Source: Lysobacterales bacterium (GTDB taxonomy: Bacteria; Pseudomonadota; Gammaproteobacteria; Xanthomonadales; Wenzhouxiangellaceae). From it: a stretch of 64,000 bases of DNA. The notes beneath the pieces are model-generated. The model did not search any database. It had not been told where the DNA came from and saw only the letters and a list, made by a program, of their open reading frames with translations. Positions 9,756-48,532 of this stretch are shown here, in pieces (the stretch's first letter is position 1; each line of letters opens with the position of its first letter). The stretch covers positions 4,169-68,168 of the forward strand of contig JAKSCJ010000259.1 in the NCBI GenBank assembly GCA_022360675.1. The letters run 5' to 3'. A program made the translations under genes and the position numbers.

Positions 9756-10762
9756 CTGTAAAAGTCGCGATTAATGGTTATGGCCGCATCGGCCGCAATA
9801 TTCTGCGTGCGATCTACGAATCAGGCCGCAATAACGAAATCCAAGTGGTGGCAATTAACGATTTGGGTGACGCGAACACCAACGCTCACTTGACCCGTTT
9901 TGATACCGCGCATGGTCGCTTCCCCGGCACAGTTACTGTTGAAGAAGGCCACATGGTGGTGAATGGCGATCGCATTCGCGTTTGCGCCGAGCGTGATCCC
10001 GCTAAACTGCCCTGGGGTGATTTAGGGGTCGATGTAGTTATGGAATGCACCGGCTTTTTCGCCAGCAAAGAAAAAGCCAGTGCCCACTTAAACGCCGGTG
10101 CCCGTAAAGTGATTATTTCAGCGCCTGCGGGTAAAGATGTGGATGCCACCATCGTTTACGGTGTGAACCACAACTCGCTGAAAGCCGAGCACCAGGTCAT
10201 CTCCAATGCTTCGTGCACCACCAACTGCTTAGCGCCGTTGGTTCAACCGCTGCACGATGCCATCGGTATTGAACAAGGTCTGATGACCACCGTTCATGCC
10301 TACACCAACGACCAAGTACTGACCGACGTTTATCATTCCGATTTACGCCGCGCACGTTCAGCTACCATGTCGCAAATTCCCACCAAAACCGGTGCGGCTG
10401 CGGCAGTGGGCTTAGTACTGCCGGATCTGGCGGGTAAGCTGGATGGCTTTGCGGTACGTGTGCCCACCATTAATGTGTCGCTGGTGGATTTAACCTTCAC
10501 TGCCAAGCGCGATACCTCAGTGGAAGAAATCAACGAGCTTTTGCGTAGCGCCAGCGAAGGCCACCTGAAAGGCGTGTTGGATTACAACGATGAGCCTTTG
10601 GTCTCCATCGATTTCAACCACAGCCCGGCTTCTAGCACCTACGATGCCAGCATGACTCGTGTGAACGGTCGTTTGGTGAAAGTGTGCTCTTGGTACGACA
10701 ACGAGTGGGGCTTTTCTAACCGTATGCTAGACACCACACTGGCATTGATGAACGCCGCTTAA
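9752..10762 (+). CDS. gap: Type I glyceraldehyde-3-phosphate dehydrogenase
   Basis: [22 protein letters not shown] and [11 protein letters not shown]. The loop [11 protein letters not shown] is GAPDH-like rather than the Epd version. An ATGA-type overlap with the tkt stop is present. Confidence 0.92.
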
Positions 10763-10922
10763 ACGAGCGCTAACGATACTTTTTAAGTATCGTATTGCCC
10801 TTAGATCAACCGGGTTGGGATGTTTCCCAGCCCGGTTTGCGTTGGTTTCGCCTAAGAGCTTTTTTCTAAATTTGATGACAGGCAATCGCCGCCCGCCTCA
10901 CTGTTTTCAGGAGCAGACTCCC

Positions 10923-12089
10923 ATGCGCTTAATGCAAGATCTCGATCTTTCCGGCCGCCGCGTGCTCATTCGCGAAGATCTCAATGTGCCGATAAAAGAC
11001 GGAGCCATTTCTTCCGACACCCGCATTCAAGCCGCATTGCCCACCCTACGCATGGCGCTGGAAAAAGGTGCTGCGGTGATGGTGATGTCGCACTTGGGCC
11101 GTCCTAAAGAAGGTGAGGCTGCCGCCGAGTTTTCATTACAGCCGGTGGCTCAACGTTTAAGCGAGCTGTTAGGCCAAGAGGTTCGTTTAGCCAGCGACTG
11201 GCTAGATGGCGTTGAAGTGAACCCAGGCGATGTGGTGCTGTGCGAGAACGTACGCTTTAACGTGGGTGAAAAAGCCAACGACGAGCAACTGGCCAAGCGC
11301 ATGGCGGCACTGTGCGATGTGTTTGTCATGGATGCCTTTGGTACAGCCCATCGTGCTCAAGCCAGCACCGAGGGTGTGGTGCATCATGCGCCTATTGCTT
11401 GCGCTGGTCCGTTATTGGCTACCGAGTTAGAGGCTTTGGATCAAGCCTTAAAAGCGCCGAAAAAACCCTTGTTGGCTATTATCGGCGGTTCTAAAGTTTC
11501 CACCAAACTAGGTGTCTTGAATGCCTTGATGGACGAGGTGGATCAACTGATTGTGGGCGGTGGTATCGCCAATACCCTATTGGCGGCAGCGGGTAAGCCT
11601 GTGGGTAAGTCCTTATACGAACCCGATCAGCTGGACGACGCTAAACGCCTGCTTGCGAGTGGCCGAATTCCGTTACCCGAAGATGTGGTCGTGGCCAGTG
11701 AGTTCTCGGCTGAAGCCGAGGCGCGTATTGTCGATGCCGACGATGTGGGTGAAGACGATATGATTTTAGATGTGGGCCCCAGAACCACCGCACGTTATCA
11801 AGACGTAGTGGCTCAGGCGGGCACTATCTTATGGAATGGCCCTGTGGGTGTGTTTGAATTTGATGCTTTTGCTGCGGGTACCAAAGGCTTGGCCGATGCT
11901 ATCGCCCGTTCAGAAGCGTTCTCTATTGCGGGTGGGGGCGATACTCTGGCGGCCATTGGGCAATGGCAGCTGGGCGATCAAGTCTCTTATATTTCTACCG
12001 GTGGCGGTGCTTTTCTTGAATTTGTAGAAGGCAAAGTGTTACCTGCCATTGCGGCATTACAGCAACACGCCAACGATGCGAGCGCATGA
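10923..12089 (+). CDS. pgk: Phosphoglycerate kinase
   Basis: ATG 10923 is preceded by caggagcag. Motifs: [38 protein letters not shown]. Confidence 0.97.
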
Positions 12090-16615: not shown

Positions 16616-17299
16616 TTAACGGTATAACTGATGGTTTTTAATGTATTCGATCACAGAAACGGGTAGTAAAAAGCGTGGATTATAGCCTTGCTGTATTTGT
16701 TGACGAATATCGGTTGATGAAATAGCTAACTGAGTTATGGGTAAGTGCAAGACCAGCCCATGCTGATAAGCGAGCAGGCGTTGCTGCGTTTGCGTGCTGC
16801 GTTGCTGCATCTGCGGCGTTAGTTGGGCACTGTACGCGCTGGCGCTTTCTGGGCGTGTCATCACGATGAGATGGCACAATTCAAACAATTCTTGCCAACG
16901 ATGCCAACGATCTAAATCATTGGCTGCATCTTGGCCCAGTACTAAGCTGAGCGAAATATCGGGGCTTTCTTGGCGAATCGATTTGAGCGTATCCACCATA
17001 TAACTGGGGCCGTTGCGTAAAATCTCTCGCTGATCGATGGTGAAATCGGGGTGATTTTTTAACACCAGCTCCAGCATGGCCAGGCGATGTTGGGCGTTGG
17101 CAAAGGTGTGGTCGCGATGTGGTGGCGTGCCTGAGGGTAGCAAGCGTAGTTCTGCCTCGCTTAAAGCCTCTTTAACCTCGGATGCGGCGCGCAAATGGCC
17201 ATAATGAACAGGATCAAAAGTGCCGCCGAAGATCACCACGGCCCGCCCTTGGGCTGGTTTTAGTGGGCGCTGGTTTTGTTGGTGAGCGTGGTTGGTCAT
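16616..17299 (-). CDS. nadD: Nicotinate-nucleotide adenylyltransferase
   Basis: ATG 17299 gives MTNHAH...VVIFGGTFDPVHYGHL (the (H/T)xGH motif), followed by ISSTDIR. It sits downstream of holA as in the conserved leuS-lptE-holA-nadD cluster. The Pro/Arg-rich extension in the ORF track is rejected. Confidence 0.92.
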   Translation of the reverse strand: MTNHAHQQNQRPLKPAQGRAVVIFGGTFDPVHYGHLRAASEVKEALSEAELRLLPSGTPPHRDHTFANAQHRLAMLELVLKNHPDFTIDQREILRNGPSYMVDTLKSIRQESPDISLSLVLGQDAANDLDRWHRWQELFELCHLIVMTRPESASAYSAQLTPQMQQRSTQTQQRLLAYQHGLVLHLPITQLAISSTDIRQQIQQGYNPRFLLPVSVIEYIKNHQLYR

Positions 17300-17304
17300 C
17301 GAGA

Positions 17305-18336
17305 TTACAGGCGAATGGCCTGTAGCGGGTTTTGGGCGGGTTGCAAAGTCACCGCGATAATAAAGCGTTCTAGTGCGGTGAGGAAGTCGCCTCGGCGCTG
17401 ACCTTTGGCCATGCAATCGAGCTGGGCCAGTGCGGCCAGGGCTTGATTGGCGTGATCGGCACCTAGGCGGCGTGCAGCTTGCTGAATAGGGCCTTGGCGG
17501 TTGCGCCAAATACCTAACTCTTTAAAAGCTGCATCGATGCCCTGGCGTGGTGCAAGATACATCCACTGACGCAGCAGTTGGAATTCGCGAATCAGTAAGC
17601 CCACCAATAAGGGCGGTGCTTCGCCTGCACGCAGTAAACCATGGGCCATGCGCAAAGCTTCGGCAGTGGCTCCTTTGAGCACGGTTTCCGTCATGCGAAA
17701 CACATCGAACTGAGCGCTGTCGGCCACTGCGTTTTCGATGGCGGCTAAGGTCACCTCACCTTGAGGCAATATTAAGGCCAGCTTATCCACCTCTTGCGCG
17801 GCAGCTAGTAAATTGCCTTCTACCCGACTGCTCAACAGTGCCACGGCATCGCCATTGGCCTTTAAACCCCGGCTGCGTAGGCGTTGTTGAATCCAACCAT
17901 TCAGGCGTTCGGGTTTAACCGCCCAAACCGGAACGTACACACCTGCCTGTTCCACTGATTTAGCCCAGCTGGTTTTTTCGCTGCTTAAATCCCATTGTTC
18001 GCTGGTGATCAGCAGGTAATCGCTATTGCCGGATTTCAGCCATTCTTGAATAGCGGCACCGCCTTCGCGGCCGATTTTGCCTGAGCTCAGCCTGAGTTCA
18101 ATGAGGCGCGAATCGCCAAATAACGACATGCTGGCACCGGCGCTGGCTAATTGGTTCCAATCGAAACCTTTATCGGCTTCTAAAATCTCGCGTTCGGTAA
18201 CGCCTTGTTGTTTTAAGCGCTCGCGGATGGCTTGCACGGCCTCTTCACGCAGGAGCATTTCGGGGCCCGCCACCAGATACACTGGTGCCGGATCCCCTTG
18301 TAGCTGGCGCGATAATTGTTGTGAGTCGATGCGCAT
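17305..18336 (-). CDS. holA: DNA polymerase III delta subunit
   Basis: 343 aa. N-terminus MRIDSQQLSRQLQGDPAPVYLVAGPEMLL is typical of HolA. Conserved position after lptE, with a TAATG overlap. Confidence 0.9.
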   Translation of the reverse strand: MRIDSQQLSRQLQGDPAPVYLVAGPEMLLREEAVQAIRERLKQQGVTEREILEADKGFDWNQLASAGASMSLFGDSRLIELRLSSGKIGREGGAAIQEWLKSGNSDYLLITSEQWDLSSEKTSWAKSVEQAGVYVPVWAVKPERLNGWIQQRLRSRGLKANGDAVALLSSRVEGNLLAAAQEVDKLALILPQGEVTLAAIENAVADSAQFDVFRMTETVLKGATAEALRMAHGLLRAGEAPPLLVGLLIREFQLLRQWMYLAPRQGIDAAFKELGIWRNRQGPIQQAARRLGADHANQALAALAQLDCMAKGQRRGDFLTALERFIIAVTLQPAQNPLQAIRL

Positions 18337-42311: not shown

Positions 42312-42340
42312 GCCTCACTCTGGCCGAGTGAGGCTTTTTT
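42312..42340 (+). terminator. Rho-independent terminator
   Basis: GCCTCACTC-tggcc-GAGTGAGGCTTTTTT. Confidence 0.85.
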
Positions 42341-42359: not shown

Positions 42360-42671
42360 CTAATGGGCGGCCATGTCACGCATCATCTTCAGCAGTTGTT
42401 GCATGCTGGGGCTTTGCTGGCGCTGGCCGGGGGCAAGCAATTGGCAGCCTTTGTAAGCGGCCTTGGCGCTTTGGCCGAGAGTTTCTAAGCCATACATACC
42501 TGCAGAACCACCTAAACGGTGTAAGTGGCGTAGCAGTTCGGTGTAACTTTCTTCGTCACCGTCGGCCGCGGCTTGCCATAGTTTTTCTAAATCATTGGCC
42601 CGTTCTTGTAATTGTGCGCGGTAACGGAGCTGGGCCTGATGTAAGGCCGACTGAGTTTGTTCACTAAGCAT
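42360..42671 (-). CDS. Hpt (histidine phosphotransfer) domain protein
   Basis: 103-aa four-helix-type protein with LLRHLHRLGGSAGMYGL (the HxxKG-like Hpt motif). It is the last gene of the GTPase/phosphorelay operon. Confidence 0.8.
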   Translation of the reverse strand: MLSEQTQSALHQAQLRYRAQLQERANDLEKLWQAAADGDEESYTELLRHLHRLGGSAGMYGLETLGQSAKAAYKGCQLLAPGQRQQSPSMQQLLKMMRDMAAH

Positions 42672-42721
42672 CTCATTGTCATCCTGGCAGTGTTGCCCTT
42701 GAAGCCGTGCTTACAGTGTGC

Positions 42722-44329
42722 TCATACGTTAGCGGTATATTGTTGTTGCGCCGCTAACATTTTGCCCAAGCTAATGCGCAAGGCAGAAGCTGATATTGGT
42801 TTGGCTAGCAATAAAAAGTTAGGGTTTTGATTAACCCGCACACTTTCCTCGCTAGGTACCGAACCGGTGAGCATCACCACGGGAATGTCTGGATCGAGGC
42901 GTCGCACCATTTGCATTGCCTCCACGCCCACACCGTCTTCAAGGAGATAATCGGTGATGAATAAATCCGTTATTGGTAAATCCGTTATTGGGTGCTTGTG
43001 CTGTGTTTCGTTTTGCTGTTCTCGTAGCCACTGCTTTAATTCGCCTATGCCGCTAAGCAATGTGGGCTGTAAACCCCATTCACTTAAAACGATATCTAAC
43101 CATTCCCGTAGGTCTGGGTCGTCATCGAGTACCAAGACCCGGCCACTGATGGGTGTTAGTGGCTGTTCGTCGGGAATCGGTGCTGGCACTACAAACTGAA
43201 AGCAAGCGCCTGGATATTCTTTATTATTCGTTTGCTGCAATAATTCTAAATTGCCGCCCATTAATTGAGCGAGTTGGCGGCAGATGGACAATCCTAAACC
43301 GGCACCGCCACCGGGTGCCGATTCGCCCCGCTCGTAGGCGCGGAAGATGCGCTCTCGATCGGCCTCGGGAATGCCTGGGCCGGTATCTTGTACGACTAAG
43401 ATCAAACGCTCTGATGCGTATGAAAACCGGGCATGTACCGAGCCTTGGCTGGTATAGCGTAAAGCATTGCCGATGAGGTTAATCGCGATCTGGCGAATAC
43501 GAACGATATCGAGCATAACCCGATCTGGTGTGTTTTCGTCACACTCAATTTGTAACTGGATGTCACGTTCTTTCGCCTGACTCTGAAATAAGTCATTGAG
43601 CAACATGACCAGCTCGCTGGGTTCGGCGGGCTCTTGGGTCAAACTCACCTGATCACGACCTAAGCGTGCTTGCTCGAGGACATTTTCGACCATGCTCGAT
43701 AAATGCCAGGCCGAGCGGCGAATGGCCGCCAAGTGATGCCTTTGAGCGGCTTTCGCTAAGGGATCGTCTTGTCGTTGGAGTAAATCGGTGTAACCCAAAA
43801 TGGCATTTAACGGCGTGCGGAATTCGTGCGACATCATGGCGATATAACGCGCTTGTGCCTGATTTAACGCCGCCAACTCATTGCGTTGTTGTTCTAATTC
43901 GTTGCGCTGGGCTTCGATGGCGGCATTCGCGCGGCTGAGTTGATCTAAAGTGCGTTGCTGGCGGCTGCTCAACAAGCGCACTTCGTTGGCTTGTTGCTGC
44001 TGCGCTTGTACTAAGCGGTGTTGTTCGCTGGCATCGAACAATAAAATAAAACGGCGCTGCTCTGCTTGGCGTAACTCGATATGGGCGATGGCGCCTGTGG
44101 GCAGTGTGACGAAGGACAGCGATAAGGGCTCGCCCATATCCATGCCTTGAAGAAAATCCAAACCCGGCGGCAGAATTTCGCCTAAGGTGAGATGCTCTAA
44201 ACCATAGCGCGCTGCCGGTCCGTCGTAGGCTACCAAGCAGAACAGGCTGTCGTATTCAATGCATAAGGGCGCTGCGAGCCGCTCGATTTGCTTCGCCATG
44301 AAGTGTTGAATCGGCTCTGGCAGGTTCAT
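42722..44329 (-). CDS. Cytoplasmic hybrid sensor histidine kinase (unassigned ~120-aa N-domain, coiled coil, HisKA, HATPase_c, REC)
   Basis: No TM segment. H-box MSHEFRTPLNAILGYTDLL, N-box LIGNALRYT, G-boxes VQDTGPGIP and GGAGLGLSI. REC domain: VLVLDDDPD ... FITDYLLEDG ... VVMLTGS ... LLAKP. ATGA overlap with the GTPase gene. Confidence 0.9.
   Translation of the reverse strand: MNLPEPIQHFMAKQIERLAAPLCIEYDSLFCLVAYDGPAARYGLEHLTLGEILPPGLDFLQGMDMGEPLSLSFVTLPTGAIAHIELRQAEQRRFILLFDASEQHRLVQAQQQQANEVRLLSSRQQRTLDQLSRANAAIEAQRNELEQQRNELAALNQAQARYIAMMSHEFRTPLNAILGYTDLLQRQDDPLAKAAQRHHLAAIRRSAWHLSSMVENVLEQARLGRDQVSLTQEPAEPSELVMLLNDLFQSQAKERDIQLQIECDENTPDRVMLDIVRIRQIAINLIGNALRYTSQGSVHARFSYASERLILVVQDTGPGIPEADRERIFRAYERGESAPGGGAGLGLSICRQLAQLMGGNLELLQQTNNKEYPGACFQFVVPAPIPDEQPLTPISGRVLVLDDDPDLREWLDIVLSEWGLQPTLLSGIGELKQWLREQQNETQHKHPITDLPITDLFITDYLLEDGVGVEAMQMVRRLDPDIPVVMLTGSVPSEESVRVNQNPNFLLLAKPISASALRISLGKMLAAQQQYTANV
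42962..42991. repeat. Perfect 15-bp tandem duplication inside the REC-coding region
   Basis: The plus strand reads TAAATCCGTTATTGG x2. This is in frame on the minus strand and gives PITDL-PITDL immediately before FITDY (the predicted phospho-acceptor Asp strand). Confidence 0.95.
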
Positions 44330-44883
44330 CCCAGCATTTCCATGGCAGTGGGGGCGATCATGGCACGCGCGAGGCGGTCAAAGGCCTCGGGCACGGCTTC
44401 ACCACTTAGGGCACTGGTGCACAGTATGTTCCAGCCGAGATCGCGTTGCTGTTGTATCCAGCTGTCGGGCACTTGCCATTGTTCGCTAAGGTCGTGTTTG
44501 TTCAACAGCATGATGAAAGGGCGTGGCCCCAGGCTGCGTACCACTTGTTGTTGAATGTGCACCGCGTTATGAACGGTATCCATACGGCTGCCATCGGCCA
44601 CCAATAAGTACCCCTGCATGCCTTGAATATACATTTGGCTCTGCGGGCCCAGCTCAGCCTCGCCGGCTAAATCCCACAACACCATTTTGACCTTGGTGGC
44701 TTCTGTGCTGCTGTTATCTTGGCTGGAGGCTGCATCAATGGTGACTTCGCAGGTGTCGATCTTGACACCCACGGTGGTTTGATAACTGGCATCGAACACA
44801 CCGGTTACAAAGCGCCGCACAAGGCTGCTTTTGCCGACGGCAAAATTACCCAGCATGCAAATTTTACGGCTGACTTCATTCAC
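44326..44883 (-). CDS. Ras-superfamily small GTPase (MglA/Rup/CvnD-like)
   Basis: G1 GNFAVGKS, G2 region YQTTVGV, G3 WDLAGEAE, G4 NKHD, G5 TSAL. About 185 aa. The GTG start at 44883 overlaps the upstream gene by 8 nt. Confidence 0.85.
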   Translation of the reverse strand: MNEVSRKICMLGNFAVGKSSLVRRFVTGVFDASYQTTVGVKIDTCEVTIDAASSQDNSSTEATKVKMVLWDLAGEAELGPQSQMYIQGMQGYLLVADGSRMDTVHNAVHIQQQVVRSLGPRPFIMLLNKHDLSEQWQVPDSWIQQQRDLGWNILCTSALSGEAVPEAFDRLARAMIAPTAMEMLG

Positions 44884-46759
44884 GAATGTTCACCACAATC
44901 TCACAATAACGCAGGGCCGCATTAAAACCGGGCGGCGGGCGTTCTAGTTGGGCGTCGGCTTGAAGAATAGATGGGTCGACGCCAGCGCTCAGCAAGGCGT
45001 CTCGGCTTGCTTCAGCACGGGCGCGGCGGATTTCAAGATTAACGTCCCAAGTATCGACGCCGTCGCTCATGCCGAGCAATTGAATGCTAATGGACTGCCC
45101 TGTAGTTGCTGCCAAGTGTTCGAGCTGTTGTATCTGTTTAGCCATTTCGGAGATACGTTGTTGGCTTTCAGAATCGAACACAATGCCACTATTAAAGTTT
45201 AATCGGCTGCCATTGAGGCTTTCAATGATTTGGCTCAATTGTTGGTGTTCGGCTACAGCCAGTTGCTGGGTGTTAGATTGGTAATAAATTGGAAGTTTAG
45301 CAATAAGTTGCGGAAGCTTCTTATGCCACGCTAGAGGTGCCTGGCCCGTAAAAATAAGTTCTGTGTCCTGTTGTGACATCTGGCTGCTGGCGGGCAGCTC
45401 TAAGGCTTGGCTCAGCGCTGCGTGGTCGAGCTGAGGCAGCGTTAAGGTCCATTGCGGCGCTAGCAGCGCTTGGCTTTGCCGCAATTGTTGCCATTGTTGC
45501 GTCGTTAATTGACCTTCTACACGTAGGTGTTGGTCTACCACGCTAAGCTTTGCTCGCGCTTCAGGGTCTGCGTTATCAATGTGGGCGGCATGTTGTAAGC
45601 GCTTTAGCAGTAGCTCTTGTTCCTGCGATAAATAGCTTTGCTCGCGTAAATTGATACGTTGCGGGGCTAATGCCACGGCTTCCAGGACTGCGGCTCGATT
45701 AGGTGCCAGCGGATCGCGCAGTAGGGTGCCACTGATCTGGCCGTCTTGAATACGGCTATCGAATAGCATTAAACCGGGCGTTTGATCTACATACTGTTGC
45801 AGCCGTTGTTGATCTTGCTTCAGCTGCCAAGTATGCAAAGCCCATACGCCCGTTAGCAGCAATAATGCGGCGATGCCCAAACCCCAGGCTAAACGGGCGG
45901 GGCCTCGTTCGGGTGATTTTGGACGCTGTTCGACCAGATGTTGATCGAGCAGGGCATCGACTTGGCTGTGCTGAATTTTATTGCCTTGATATTGCTGCAG
46001 TTCATCACGCAGCAAACGATGCACCGACTCCAAAGATTCATGCATGCCTTCGCGCAAAGACAAGGGTGGTTCGCCTTCAATGACGGCGGCTAAAATGGCG
46101 TCGGGGCCGTTAATTAACCACAGGCTGGCACCGCCCATTTCCACTGTGCGCAGTGGATCTTCAGCGATATCGGTTAGCGACTGACGGAGAAAGTTCTGAA
46201 TGGCGGTAAGCATGCTGGCCACAGCATCTTGGTCGAGTGCCAGTACCTCGCGCCGGCTACGACGCACCATCATCAGGCCGGTATTGCGGTGAATGAGAAA
46301 TAACTCATTGACACTGAACGACAAGCTGTGACGCAAAACAATTTGCGCAAAGGGCTCGCCACTACGCCAAGACTCTAAACGCCAGCGCCAGGCCCGTGGC
46401 GATAAACCATGCTCTAAAGCGAGATTAATGCGCTGAACGGCGCTACGCAGGCTTTCTTGTACCGCCCGGCGAATAGCTGGCCCCATTACCGGGAAAAGCA
46501 AAGAGGCGACGCTTTCGCGATCACGCTCGATACTCTCGTGGAGGGCGGCGGTTACCGGGCTCGATAAGCTGGCGCGCAGATCGGGATCGCCACGCAGCTG
46601 ATCTAGCGTTTGCGGTAAATCGCTACGCAGACGCTGTTGGCGTTGGTCGGATTGTTGTTGGTTTTCGAGCTGATCGAGCCGTTCACGCTCGTGGTTCAGC
46701 AGCAATTCCTGCAAGCGCTCCCATTCGGTCATAAGCTGATCACTCGGCGGCAGTGCCAA
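44876..46759 (-). CDS. Bitopic membrane protein: cytoplasmic coiled coil plus Roadblock/LC7-like module, one TM, periplasmic region ending in an OmpA/MotB-like peptidoglycan-binding domain
   Basis: TM LAWGLGIAALLLLTGVWALHTW at about residues 290-312. Cytoplasmic segment ELFLIHRNTGLMMV...LDQDAVASMLTAIQNF...RTVEMGGASLWLINGPDAILAAVIEGEP fits the Roadblock/MglB pattern. The C-terminus IQLLGMSDGVDTWDVNLEIRRARAEASRDALLSAGV fits the OmpA_C pattern. The start is TTG 46759 or ATG 46732. Confidence 0.75.
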   Translation of the reverse strand: MALPPSDQLMTEWERLQELLLNHERERLDQLENQQQSDQRQQRLRSDLPQTLDQLRGDPDLRASLSSPVTAALHESIERDRESVASLLFPVMGPAIRRAVQESLRSAVQRINLALEHGLSPRAWRWRLESWRSGEPFAQIVLRHSLSFSVNELFLIHRNTGLMMVRRSRREVLALDQDAVASMLTAIQNFLRQSLTDIAEDPLRTVEMGGASLWLINGPDAILAAVIEGEPPLSLREGMHESLESVHRLLRDELQQYQGNKIQHSQVDALLDQHLVEQRPKSPERGPARLAWGLGIAALLLLTGVWALHTWQLKQDQQRLQQYVDQTPGLMLFDSRIQDGQISGTLLRDPLAPNRAAVLEAVALAPQRINLREQSYLSQEQELLLKRLQHAAHIDNADPEARAKLSVVDQHLRVEGQLTTQQWQQLRQSQALLAPQWTLTLPQLDHAALSQALELPASSQMSQQDTELIFTGQAPLAWHKKLPQLIAKLPIYYQSNTQQLAVAEHQQLSQIIESLNGSRLNFNSGIVFDSESQQRISEMAKQIQQLEHLAATTGQSISIQLLGMSDGVDTWDVNLEIRRARAEASRDALLSAGVDPSILQADAQLERPPPGFNAALRYCEIVVNIRE

Positions 46760-46821
46760 CAGCGTAGTAAGAACTACGCTGTGGTGTGGTCATCGGATTG
46801 GGCACGACAAGGGCCGCCGGA

Positions 46822-47334
46822 TCAGGCGGACTGATCGCTGTCGACGGCAACCGGGGGGCGTATGGTGTCCGCCAAACCGGTGAGCAAGTCGGCCAATTGA
46901 CCGCGGCTGACCTTATCGCGTGTGAGCTGATCTTGCCGCTGTTGATGGCGTTGATCCAGGTTGTCGATAACGTCGCGCAGGTCTTTGTCCATGGCAGCCA
47001 AAGCACTGCGGAAGTCGTCTTCAACGGCACTGATGCGATTTTCGTGATCTTGCGCTTGTTGCTGTAAACGGCGCTCCAGTTCAGCGATCGCTTGTTCGCG
47101 GCTGTCGTGCTCGTTTTGTAACTGGCGCTGGAATTGATCTTCGAGCTGCTGAAAGCGTTCGTTAACGTTGGCTTCCAGCTGGGCGATACGTTGATCAAGC
47201 TGACGATAACTCTCACCAAAGAGCAGCTCGCGCACTTGATTCATGTTGTCGTTTGTCATCAGGCTCTGTTGATTGTTATCACCTGACTGCTGGTCTGCAG
47301 CGGTGTTGTCGGCCTGTTTATTCTTCTGCCCCAT
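46822..47334 (-). CDS. Coiled-coil protein (Gln/Asp/Arg-rich), first-gene-coupled
   Basis: 170 aa, with heptad-like sequence throughout. Its ATG overlaps the stop of the response-regulator gene (TAATG). An N-terminal motif (VRELLFGESYRQLDQRIAQLE) is echoed at the N-terminus of the 627-aa protein (LQELLLNHERERLDQLE). Confidence 0.7.
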   Translation of the reverse strand: MGQKNKQADNTAADQQSGDNNQQSLMTNDNMNQVRELLFGESYRQLDQRIAQLEANVNERFQQLEDQFQRQLQNEHDSREQAIAELERRLQQQAQDHENRISAVEDDFRSALAAMDKDLRDVIDNLDQRHQQRQDQLTRDKVSRGQLADLLTGLADTIRPPVAVDSDQSA

Positions 47335-48029
47335 TAATGTTCCTCAGACAATCGTTCCAGTCGATAACCGTAGTGGTAAACGGCTTGTAAATTCCAACCA
47401 TTTTCAGGGCGCAAATGCAGTTTTTGGCGCACCCGGCTTACGTGGGTATCGACGGTGCGGGTCTGCAGTTGCCCGGTCGCGCCCCATACTTGATGCAGCA
47501 GGGTTTCGCGCGACAAAATGCGACCTAGGTTTTCGAAAAAGTACAAAGCAAGATCAAATTCACGCGCGGTCAGGCTGATTTCTTCACCGTGGTGCGAACA
47601 AACCCGGCGCTTGCGATCGAATTGGTATTCGCCCACCACGAGTAAATCGGCGGGTGGCTCTTTCAAGCCGGTGCGGCGTGCTAAAGCCTGGATGCGGGCG
47701 GTAAGCACGGGGCGTGCTAAAGGTTTGACGAGGTAATCGTCGGCACCATTGTTGAGGGCTTCGACGATGGATTCTTCCTCATCGCGGCCGGTGGTGAAAA
47801 TCACCGGTAAATTCCAACCCAATTGACGACTAATCCAATTCAGGACCTCCATGCCGTCCATATCGGGTACGCACCAGTCCAACAGCACCATGTCGAAAAT
47901 TTCGCCTTTCAGTGCACGGACCAAAGCGGCGCCAGTGGAAAAAATAACCAGTTCTATATCGGTGTCCTGTAGCCACAAGCGCATGATGTGCGCTTGATCG
48001 CTATCGTCTTCCAATAAGGCAATACGCAT
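47334..48029 (-). CDS. OmpR/PhoB-family response regulator (REC plus winged helix)
   Basis: MRIALLEDD, VLLDWCVPDMDG, TTGRD, DDYLVKP, then LTAREFDLALYF ... VDTHVSRVRQKL ... GYRL. Confidence 0.92.
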   Translation of the reverse strand: MRIALLEDDSDQAHIMRLWLQDTDIELVIFSTGAALVRALKGEIFDMVLLDWCVPDMDGMEVLNWISRQLGWNLPVIFTTGRDEEESIVEALNNGADDYLVKPLARPVLTARIQALARRTGLKEPPADLLVVGEYQFDRKRRVCSHHGEEISLTAREFDLALYFFENLGRILSRETLLHQVWGATGQLQTRTVDTHVSRVRQKLHLRPENGWNLQAVYHYGYRLERLSEEH

Positions 48030-48532
48030 TCGATCAGCCTTCTTCTTAGGTTGTTCTAACCGGCAGCCTGCGCTGGTTCAAGCCTGCCACCAGGAGGAAG
48101 TGAGCGCTTGTTCGCGCTTTTTAAGCTCTTCCTTGCGCGTCCAGCATTAGTGATGGACGCCCGATCTTGTGAGCGATTACCACAGCTTTGGTGTGGTAAT
48201 TGGCACCAATGGGGATTAGCACCGGTAACGCCTTAACAGCAAGCGCACTTATTGGCGTTGGGGAAGCCGTTAAAGTTGTCATTTGTTATCTAAAGCTGTA
48301 CCAAAAACCATTGTGATACAGAAATTAGAATAATGTAAAACGCGTTGCGTCAATTGTAGCAAACTGTTTATTACATGCGGGAAATTGTGATAGCCGGTTA
48401 TGCTGATCAGTTTTTTTTATTGAGTACAAGAGCTATATTGGCCAGCTGTATTTAACCGTTCGTCTTCAAGGTGTGCGCAGCCTGCTTAAGTGGTGGGTGC
48501 GACACCGGCAAGCAAGCAAGAAAAGGCATCCC

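Follow-up and report, generated by a model that had tools for sequence, protein, structure and literature searches.

On the minus strand of a 64,000-nucleotide stretch of a Lysobacterales bacterium (contig JAKSCJ010000259.1; the whole stretch is called the window here) lie six tightly packed open reading frames (ORFs) that are assigned here, by their G motifs, gene order and neighbours, to a Group 1 Rup module, a small GTPase system, in a lineage-specific six-gene form. A sequence-only reading of the window had set these genes out as one operon, and a check of the ORFs of the window found each of them, and every overlap and gap between them, as that reading had it. From the regulator to the Hpt gene they are:

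47334..48029, minus strand: OmpR/PhoB-family response regulator gene, 231 aa
46822..47334, minus strand: gene for a coiled-coil cytoplasmic protein (DUFY equivalent), 170 aa
44876..46759, minus strand: gene for a bitopic membrane protein (DUFX:OmpA equivalent), 627 aa from TTG
44326..44883, minus strand: Ras-superfamily small GTPase gene (Group 1 Rup type), 185 aa
42722..44329, minus strand: soluble hybrid histidine kinase gene, 535 aa
42360..42671, minus strand: gene for a stand-alone Hpt phosphotransfer protein, 103 aa

The junctions, in the same order, are a 1-nt TAATG overlap, a 62-nt gap, an 8-nt overlap, an ATGA overlap, which joins the GTPase and kinase genes, and a 50-nt gap, and the overlapping stop and start codons suggest co-translation. 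The domain calls made earlier (regulator, coiled coil, bitopic OmpA protein, GTPase, kinase with receiver, Hpt) are borne out, that of OmpA at the level of the family. Two of the starts merit comment. Homologues of the membrane protein begin at the methionine that is its residue 10, and ATG 46732 (618 aa) is the more likely start than TTG 46759. Automatic gene calling begins the GTPase nine residues late, at Met10 (176 aa; window 44857-44883, locus L001 9314-9871), and so cuts off strand beta-1, in which K7 and C9 do not vary among 70 homologues; because it keeps beta-1 with both residues, GTG 44883 is judged to be the correct start.

A Group 1 Rup neighbourhood was described computationally by Wuichet & Søgaard-Andersen (2014, Genome Biol Evol; PMC4316618, section 18 and Table S2). 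There rup keeps company with three conserved genes, one for a cytoplasmic coiled-coil protein, one for a domain of unknown function (DUF) that is often followed by a transmembrane helix and a C-terminal OmpA domain, and one for a signalling output, typically a cyclic di-GMP enzyme or a histidine kinase, whose N-terminal region has an invariant glutamine. The G motifs of Group 1 Rup were found to be eukaryote-like and without the G3 glutamine, which an unknown GTPase-activating protein (GAP) was proposed to supply in trans; the sequences group closely with eukaryotic Rab, Ras, Rho and Ran, and Rup proteins were not predicted to work with MglB homologues (PMC4316618). The order DUFY, DUFX:OmpA, Rup is given in Table S2 of that study for Alteromonas, Glaciecola, Marinomonas and Pseudoalteromonas, among others. 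Since the core four genes of the window match this neighbourhood, with gammaproteobacterial examples in the same order, the view of the sequence-only reading that the architecture could be mapped to no described system fails. Common to both are a GTPase with DxxG but no Gln in G3, DUFY upstream, DUFX:OmpA, a downstream output with the invariant Gln, and the order of the genes. The published set has four genes, whereas the window adds an OmpR-type regulator before them and a separate Hpt after them to give a complete relay, and DUFX and the output N-region, both unmatched in PMC4316618, are here predicted to have Roadblock/longin and PAS-like folds. The novelty is modest: a form of six genes that includes the regulator and Hpt, a predicted Roadblock/longin fold in DUFX, and an output N-domain assigned as PAS-like.

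The GTPase is a single-domain member of the Ras superfamily (Pfam Ras 3.9e-23, Roc 2.4e-21) which at 185 aa is within the 240 aa or less expected of Group 1 Rup and has intact G1, G2, G4 and G5. Its motifs are GNFAVGKS (G1), T37 (G2), WDLAGE (G3), NKHD (G4) and TSAL (G5), so that G3 is DxxG without the catalytic Gln. Phe stands at the position of Ras Gly12 and Glu at that of Ras Gln61, while the G3 Asp is retained. Among the 70 homologues the first of these is Phe in 66, the second is Gln in just one (Glu, Thr, Ala, Ser and Asn being the commonest residues there), and the G3 Asp and NKxD are each present in all 70; G1, the G2 Thr, G3 DxxG, NKxD and SA[KL] are strictly conserved. The residue before the G2 Thr, where MglA has its intrinsic Arg finger, is Thr in 66 of the 70. 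In Ras, loss of either Gly12 or Gln61 alone cripples hydrolysis. A Ras-family protein of this kind can be expected to bind GTP yet to be poor at hydrolysis without catalytic groups from a partner, as with Rap and RapGAP. Candidate donors of such groups, judged by their conservation, are an invariant Gln pair of the output protein, the type of donor proposed in PMC4316618, and conserved Asn and Arg residues of DUFX.

The membrane protein has a cytoplasmic N-terminus, one transmembrane helix and a periplasmic C-terminus, with parts as follows:

46361..46759, minus strand: cytoplasmic helical region, aa 1-133, modelled by AlphaFold2 (AF2) as long helices with a predicted local distance difference test score (pLDDT) of 55-80
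45995..46351, minus strand: predicted Roadblock/longin-fold domain, aa 137-255, from the AF2 model and Foldseek
45833..45892, minus strand: single transmembrane helix, aa 290-309, LAWGLGIAALLLLTGVWAL, with a Kyte-Doolittle 19-residue maximum of 2.04 at residue 290
44879..45190, minus strand: predicted periplasmic OmpA-like peptidoglycan-binding domain, aa ~524-627, with D566, N574, R581 and R617 retained

The segment at residue 290 is the sole one in the protein to reach 1.6 or more on the Kyte-Doolittle scale, and the other five operon proteins have no hydrophobic segment. In the alignment of homologues the most conserved motif of the family is FPVMGPAIRR (aa 89-98), together with N112, W126, R127, E129 and R132, all just before the Roadblock/longin domain. 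The fold of that domain comes from an AF2 model of residues 1-290 based on a 35-sequence alignment (mean pLDDT 73). Between aa 137 and 255 the model has the topology alpha-beta-beta-alpha-beta-beta-beta-alpha, with helix 137-145, strands 148-157 and 163-168, helix 177-194, strands 203-208, 211-217 and 221-229, and helix 233-255; pLDDT is 86-93 for the strands and the last helix and only 53-67 for helix 177-194. When this domain was compared with the PDB by Foldseek, all of the top 50 matches were longin or Roadblock proteins, partners of small GTPases (probability 1.00, E 2.9e-4 to 7e-3, TM-score on target 0.4-0.69, 7-20% identity). The structural neighbours include AP sigma, COPZ1, MglC (7ct3, 6.5e-4), Mon1-Ccz1, the Rag C-terminal domains and Ragulator, Asgard Roadblock and MglB. 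On the strength of the model a Roadblock/longin fold is predicted for DUFX aa 137-255, and the domain is proposed to be a GTPase-regulating or docking platform. Searches with longin sequence models gave as their sole match Fuz_longin_1, at 0.0097 in one of the 35 homologues, which is below any threshold.

At the other end of the protein the window copy taken alone is weak (Pfam OmpA 0.047; NCBIfam YiaD 1.2e-06), but the assignment is clear at family level: Pfam OmpA matches 28 of the 35 homologues (best 7.7e-16), the family profile finds YiaD (6.7e-15), Pal (6.1e-13), Rv0899 (7e-13), YfiB and MotB in the PDB, and the pocket residues D566 and R581 are conserved, all of which points to a C-terminal OmpA-like peptidoglycan-binding domain. 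A MotB-like stator was considered for this combination of transmembrane helix and OmpA domain and rejected, the helix (LAWGLGIAALLLLTGVWAL) having no acidic residue and the operon no MotA-, ExbB- or TolQ-like gene. In genomes of the Beggiatoa/Parabeggiatoa type there are two tandem DUFX-type genes, each of 790-1077 aa as against the usual ~600 aa (L068 2482-8232, L073 3535-9854, L079 2320-9316).

For DUFY, the coiled-coil partner, 56 homologues define an N-motif, IR[DE]ILFG..R....RF..LE, and a C-motif, KV.R..LA.LF; profile searches place it in no curated family and find only weak coiled-coil look-alikes. A motif that DUFY and the DUFX N-terminus seemed to share was discarded as visual resemblance only (hhalign probability 0.8%, E 0.072). 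One membrane-protein homologue, P0053 (642 aa), has the DUFY motif IQELLFG...RISHLE directly before its own N-terminal motif LQELLLAAERGRLDQLE and is possibly a partial fusion of DUFY and DUFX.

The fourth gene of the core, the output, is in the window a hybrid kinase, in which three features are of concern:

44030..44329, minus strand: predicted PAS-like N-terminal kinase domain, aa 1-100, with a D-A-S junction at its end, from AF2 (pLDDT 85.6) and Foldseek
43994..43999, minus strand: codons of Q111-Q112, invariant columns on the helix between the PAS-like and DHp domains
42722..43855, minus strand: kinase core and receiver (HisKA, HATPase_c, REC), from Pfam and residues

The N-domain had been called novel. 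An AF2 model of residues 1-125 (43-sequence alignment, pLDDT 85.6) and a Foldseek search, which returned the PAS-like domain of FlrB/VC2136 (7.3e-4), phytochrome PAS, NifL, PYP and BvgS PAS, overturn that description and predict a divergent PAS-like fold with the standard PAS topology, a five-stranded antiparallel sheet flanked by helices; there is no Pfam PAS sequence match to the N-domain. A single-sequence search with kinase residues 1-150 had found no homologue, and relatives were found by a profile built from the N-domains of related loci. The near-invariant D99-A-S junction, of the D-x-[ST] type, leads into the helix, QAQQQQANE, that bears Q111 and Q112, the only invariant columns in 35 aligned N-domains. 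QQ is present in all of 50 loci, and Q112 is invariant in a second, independent alignment. Position and invariance identify Q111-Q112 as the counterpart of the 'invariant glutamine' of Group 1 Rup output proteins (PMC4316618), and the window thereby has a signalling output with an invariant-Gln N-region as its fourth gene. It is proposed that the PAS-like domain is the input domain that binds Rup. One sequence that looked like a fusion of GTPase and PAS, and hence Rosetta-stone evidence, was set aside: P0109 is a 174-aa truncated, read-derived chimera in which GTPase residues 1-63 are joined to the middle of a PAS-like domain.

The rest of the kinase is conventional in its Pfam matches (HisKA 3.3e-16, HATPase_c 3.4e-23, Response_reg 7.3e-09) and its residues, with H168 in SHEFRTP, an N-box at 287, G1 at 315, G2 at 344, and D460, T488 and K510 in the receiver; it is taken to be soluble since it has no hydrophobic segment, and the best NCBIfam similarities of its core, to TorS, ArcB, BarA and LuxQ, are below every equivalog cut-off. 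An in-frame, perfect tandem duplication of 15 nt (x2; 42962-42991, TAAATCCGTTATTGG on the plus strand) gives PITDL-PITDL just before beta-3 and REC D460, and looks like a recent slippage event. The Hpt protein (Pfam Hpt 1.8e-08) has H51 in HRLGGSAG. The regulator (Response_reg 3.5e-23, Trans_reg_C 5.5e-21), which likewise scores below every NCBIfam equivalog cut-off, has D51, K102 and a winged-helix DNA-binding domain, and is proposed as the terminal acceptor. The His-Asp-His-Asp relay that the sequence-only reading had seen here is indeed complete in its residues: H168 of the kinase, D460 of its receiver, H51 of Hpt and D51 of the regulator.

How general is this arrangement? A survey of one genome per GTDB species gave at least 565 species loci with a relative of the membrane protein. 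The counts that follow are for the best 80 of them, in which six-frame ORFs were scored with the window proteins. These loci are from Gammaproteobacteria (Lysobacterales, Woeseiaceae, Chromatiales, Methylococcales, Beggiatoa relatives), Desulfobacterota, Acidobacteriota, Verrucomicrobiota, Binatia, Gemmatimonadota and Betaproteobacteria (Variovorax), at least seven phyla or classes. The GTPase gene is directly downstream of that for the membrane protein in 69 of the 76 with room for it, and a DUFY homologue is upstream of it in 58 of 80, so that the succession DUFY, DUFX, Rup of the window recurs in 58-69 of some 76-80 related loci. In 58 of 67 the GTPase is followed by an output that has either the N-domain or a kinase core, that kinase having a receiver in 28, and the PAS-like N-domain is detectable by sequence downstream of Rup in 42 of 67. 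The regulator and Hpt are more restricted: of 75 distant loci 18 have an orthologous OmpR-type regulator (E<1e-40) directly upstream of the DUFY gene, as do all four close relatives, and Hpt is downstream in 6 of 62. Hpt has a gene of its own in the four close relatives and in L002, L015, L057 and L075, and forms one protein with the kinase in L003 and L039.

All six genes, in the same order, are found in four relative contigs, one near-identical and three whose membrane protein is 47-53% identical to that of the window. The flank upstream is conserved in these relatives and that downstream varies (ThrE, a UbiE-type methyltransferase, DUF2167); since the six genes are kept together while the downstream flank differs, they are regarded as one unit in this lineage. 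The gene set of the sequence-only reading is, then, co-conserved, and to judge from these counts its clustering is far beyond chance, with the same gene order recurring across phyla. The family is large: a full-library search with the cytoplasmic part of DUFX found 3358 clusters at 50% identity, 2374 of them at E<=1e-10.

The QQ N-domain is the constant feature of the outputs, which include histidine kinases with or without a receiver, a fused kinase-receiver-Hpt, a SpoIIE-type phosphatase, HD-GYP and PAS proteins. That the N-domain stays beside Rup whatever catalytic part it carries marks it as the input module that would read the GTPase, and the Rup module would thus also feed Ser/Thr-phosphatase and cyclic di-GMP outputs. 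The fusions of the N-domain to a SpoIIE-type PP2C phosphatase (Variovorax) or to HD-GYP are at L044 10258-11466, L061 10210-11421 and L055 10337-11821, and in L016 (11982-14384) an Hpt-REC-REC-EAL protein comes after the kinase. In Acidobacteriota, Verrucomicrobiota and some Desulfobacterota the kinases downstream of Rup have, instead of the window type, a second and divergent N-domain (FPFLEDFLED ... SGxWxE); L033 and L055 each have both types within one protein. Kinases with the second type are:

L035 10242-11357
L037 10213-11334
L039 10240-12315
L029 10482-12704

In L014 (Methylococcales) a 409-aa ORF occupies the expected GTPase site (10106-11335), and one has to go 7 kb beyond it to reach a gene that encodes the Rup-associated N-domain (16938-17312); an insertion may have interrupted the cluster.

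The sequence-only reading had likened the operon to the conservons and to MglA/MglB, and as a likeness of logic this is supported, although on comparison the operon is neither. Conservons (CvnA-D, MfpB-D), which are confined to Actinomycetota, have an MglA-family GTPase with GTPGQ in G3 as against DLAGE in the window, a membrane-bound kinase with HAMP and a C-terminal LPxR as against one with no transmembrane segment, a Roadblock protein that is a free-standing MglB homologue, and CvnC, which is DUF742; they lack an OmpA-like domain, a response regulator and Hpt, and no match to DUF742 was found in any of the six window proteins. The MglA-MglB-RomR/RomX module of Myxococcus xanthus shares with the window a small GTPase under a Roadblock-fold partner and a tie to receiver-domain proteins, and the structural neighbours found for the DUFX domain include MglB and MglC. 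However, MglA has TVPGQ and an intrinsic Arg finger beside the G2 Thr where Rup has DLAGE and, in 66 of 70, Thr, and a Robl_LC7 sequence match is absent from the operon; moreover MglB is soluble, and the output of its module is motility polarity rather than a phosphorelay to a transcription factor. With multistep phosphorelays (LuxQ-LuxU-LuxO, or TorS, ArcB and BarA with their fused Hpt) the operon has the His-Asp-His-Asp chain in common, but its kinase is soluble and has the Rup-associated PAS-like domain as sole input domain. The best structural matches of the DUFX domain are the longin/Roadblock platforms of eukaryotes (Ragulator-Rag, Mon1-Ccz1-Rab7, AP sigma-Arf1), which dock or regulate Ras-superfamily GTPases on membranes; the likeness is at the level of fold only, and the bacterial domain is fused to a transmembrane helix and a cell-wall anchor.

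From all this a scheme can be drawn in which a Group 1 Rup module runs from the DUFX platform through Rup to the hybrid kinase, Hpt and the regulator, and to which we give a probability of about 0.6. The periplasmic OmpA-like domain would tie DUFX:OmpA to peptidoglycan and leave the helical region and the Roadblock/longin domain facing the cytoplasm, where the DUFX platform, probably with DUFY, would set the nucleotide state of Rup, or its retention at the membrane, according to the state of the envelope. Since Rup has neither the Gly12 nor the Gln61 equivalent, it would hydrolyse GTP inefficiently by itself. Rup-GTP would bind the soluble kinase at its PAS-like domain and signalling helix and switch its autophosphorylation. 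That helix may, through its invariant Gln-Gln, make the active site of the GTPase complete, in which case the effector would double as an off-timer. The phosphoryl group would then pass from H168 to D460, to H51 of Hpt and to D51 of the regulator, and transcription would change; signalling from envelope to transcription is the function we infer. That the Roadblock/longin domain in particular is the cognate regulator of Rup, whether as GAP, guanine-nucleotide exchange factor (GEF) or docking platform, is a tentative proposal with rather less than an even chance.

Several considerations weigh against this scheme. The Roadblock call rests on a single AF2 model of mean pLDDT 73, with a weak helix 177-194 and modest Foldseek E-values; the Roadblock-like module of the sequence-only reading stands as a fold match by AF2 and Foldseek and falls as a sequence-profile match, Robl_LC7 matching none of the six operon proteins or of the 35 membrane-protein homologues. 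The QQ helix is probably a coiled coil, so the invariance of QQ may be structural and not catalytic. About 9% of the loci have the membrane protein without the GTPase. A search of the literature, including the locus tags of Table S2, with most subscription journals outside its reach, found no experiment on interaction, GTPase activity or phosphotransfer for any Rup system. Lastly, the Phe at the Gly12 position could mean that Rup never hydrolyses GTP.

Might Rup then be a hydrolysis-dead, permanently GTP-bound adaptor, with the membrane protein sequestering it, or Rup and kinase together, and releasing it when contact with peptidoglycan changes, somewhat as in YfiB/YfiR? Phe in 66 of 70 homologues and the absence of Gln61 in 69 of 70 are what such an adaptor would show, either change being enough in Ras to cripple hydrolysis, and the OmpA-like domain does resemble YfiB and Pal. 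Yet the strict retention of G1, the G2 Thr, DxxG, NKxD and SA[KL] agrees with a functional nucleotide switch, an invariant QQ in a partner along with conserved Arg and Asn in DUFX is just how trans-acting catalytic machinery would be expected to look, and Rap, also without Gln61, still cycles with a GAP supplying the residue (a case discussed in PMC4316618), so that a dead adaptor is considered unlikely. The structural neighbours shared with MglB and MglC bring to mind instead a positioning device in which an anchored Roadblock protein marks the pole or septum and Rup recruits the kinase there, the relay reporting cell cycle or position and not envelope stress. A coiled-coil partner, as in many polar scaffolds, would suit that, as would outputs that include cyclic di-GMP and phosphatase enzymes, which are often localised. 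Against it, the GTPase is not of the MglA type, having the G3 Asp, no Gln and, in 66 of 70, Thr rather than Arg by the G2 Thr, and no link to motility genes exists in the window or in close relatives; this possibility seems improbable.

A less unified view would have two unrelated neighbours, a PAS-kinase/Hpt/OmpR relay that senses a small cytoplasmic ligand and a separate DUFY-DUFX-Rup module. PAS domains do usually bind ligands or cofactors and the kinase N-domain has the standard PAS topology, and the regulator and Hpt accompany the core in some lineages only (18 of 75 and 6 of 62 loci). That the PAS-like N-domain with its QQ helix adjoins Rup across phyla, whatever the catalytic output, nevertheless argues strongly against such a division, as do the ATGA overlap of the GTPase and kinase genes and the persistence of the six genes together at 47-53% identity while flanks change, and two independent units are thought highly improbable. 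The scheme in which Rup connects the DUFX platform to the relay is accordingly the one preferred here.

As to its surroundings, the operon lies in what is ordinary core chromosome, the window also encoding SecA, LeuRS, transketolase and ribosomal protein S1, and G+C is even along it; no motility genes are linked to it in the window or in close relatives. Two features bound it:

42312..42334, no strand assigned: GC-rich hairpin between the convergent Hpt and ThrE-like genes, with a 9-bp stem of which 6 pairs are GC
48030..48472, minus strand: divergent intergenic region of 443 nt, 5' of the regulator gene, with a TTTGCTACAAT block and, ahead of the ribosome-binding site AAGAAGAAGG, a stem-loop

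The first had been taken for a convergent terminator. The hairpin is real, but only the plus strand has the T-run; on the minus strand the hairpin is preceded by an A-run. The second had been described as a long leader; the 443-nt region is there, and it is a divergent intergenic one. An Rfam scan of it for riboswitches or known RNAs gave no match at gathering thresholds or at E<=1, and no promoter is claimed, given that matches to promoter consensus sequences (3) were fewer than the 6.1 expected, that is, not above chance. Alignment with three relatives revealed little in common other than the TTTGCTACAAT block, an extended -10 look-alike, and the stem-loop GGCAGGC...GCTGCC just 5' of the ribosome-binding site; both are common to the window and L084 (4019-4574), and the block is degenerate in L082.

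The attraction of the window's version is that it is compact and self-contained, with sensor, switch, kinase, Hpt and transcription factor in one operon, so that an assay of input and output is easy to design. The predicted folds, Roadblock/longin for DUFX and PAS-like with a QQ helix for the output, turn two 'domains of unknown function' into testable hypotheses by suggesting which protein regulates the GTPase and which reads it, and they bear on the statement of PMC4316618 that Rup is not predicted to work with MglB homologues. As the family has 3358 clusters at 50% identity and occurs in at least 565 GTDB species, any mechanism established for this operon would be of wide application. Should the DUFX domain indeed regulate Rup, bacteria would already have had Ras/Rab-like GTPases paired with longin/Roadblock platforms anchored in the membrane, and not in the MglA lineage alone; in this operon such a pair would link cell-wall state to a phosphorelay, with the effector kinase itself supplying the missing catalytic Gln.

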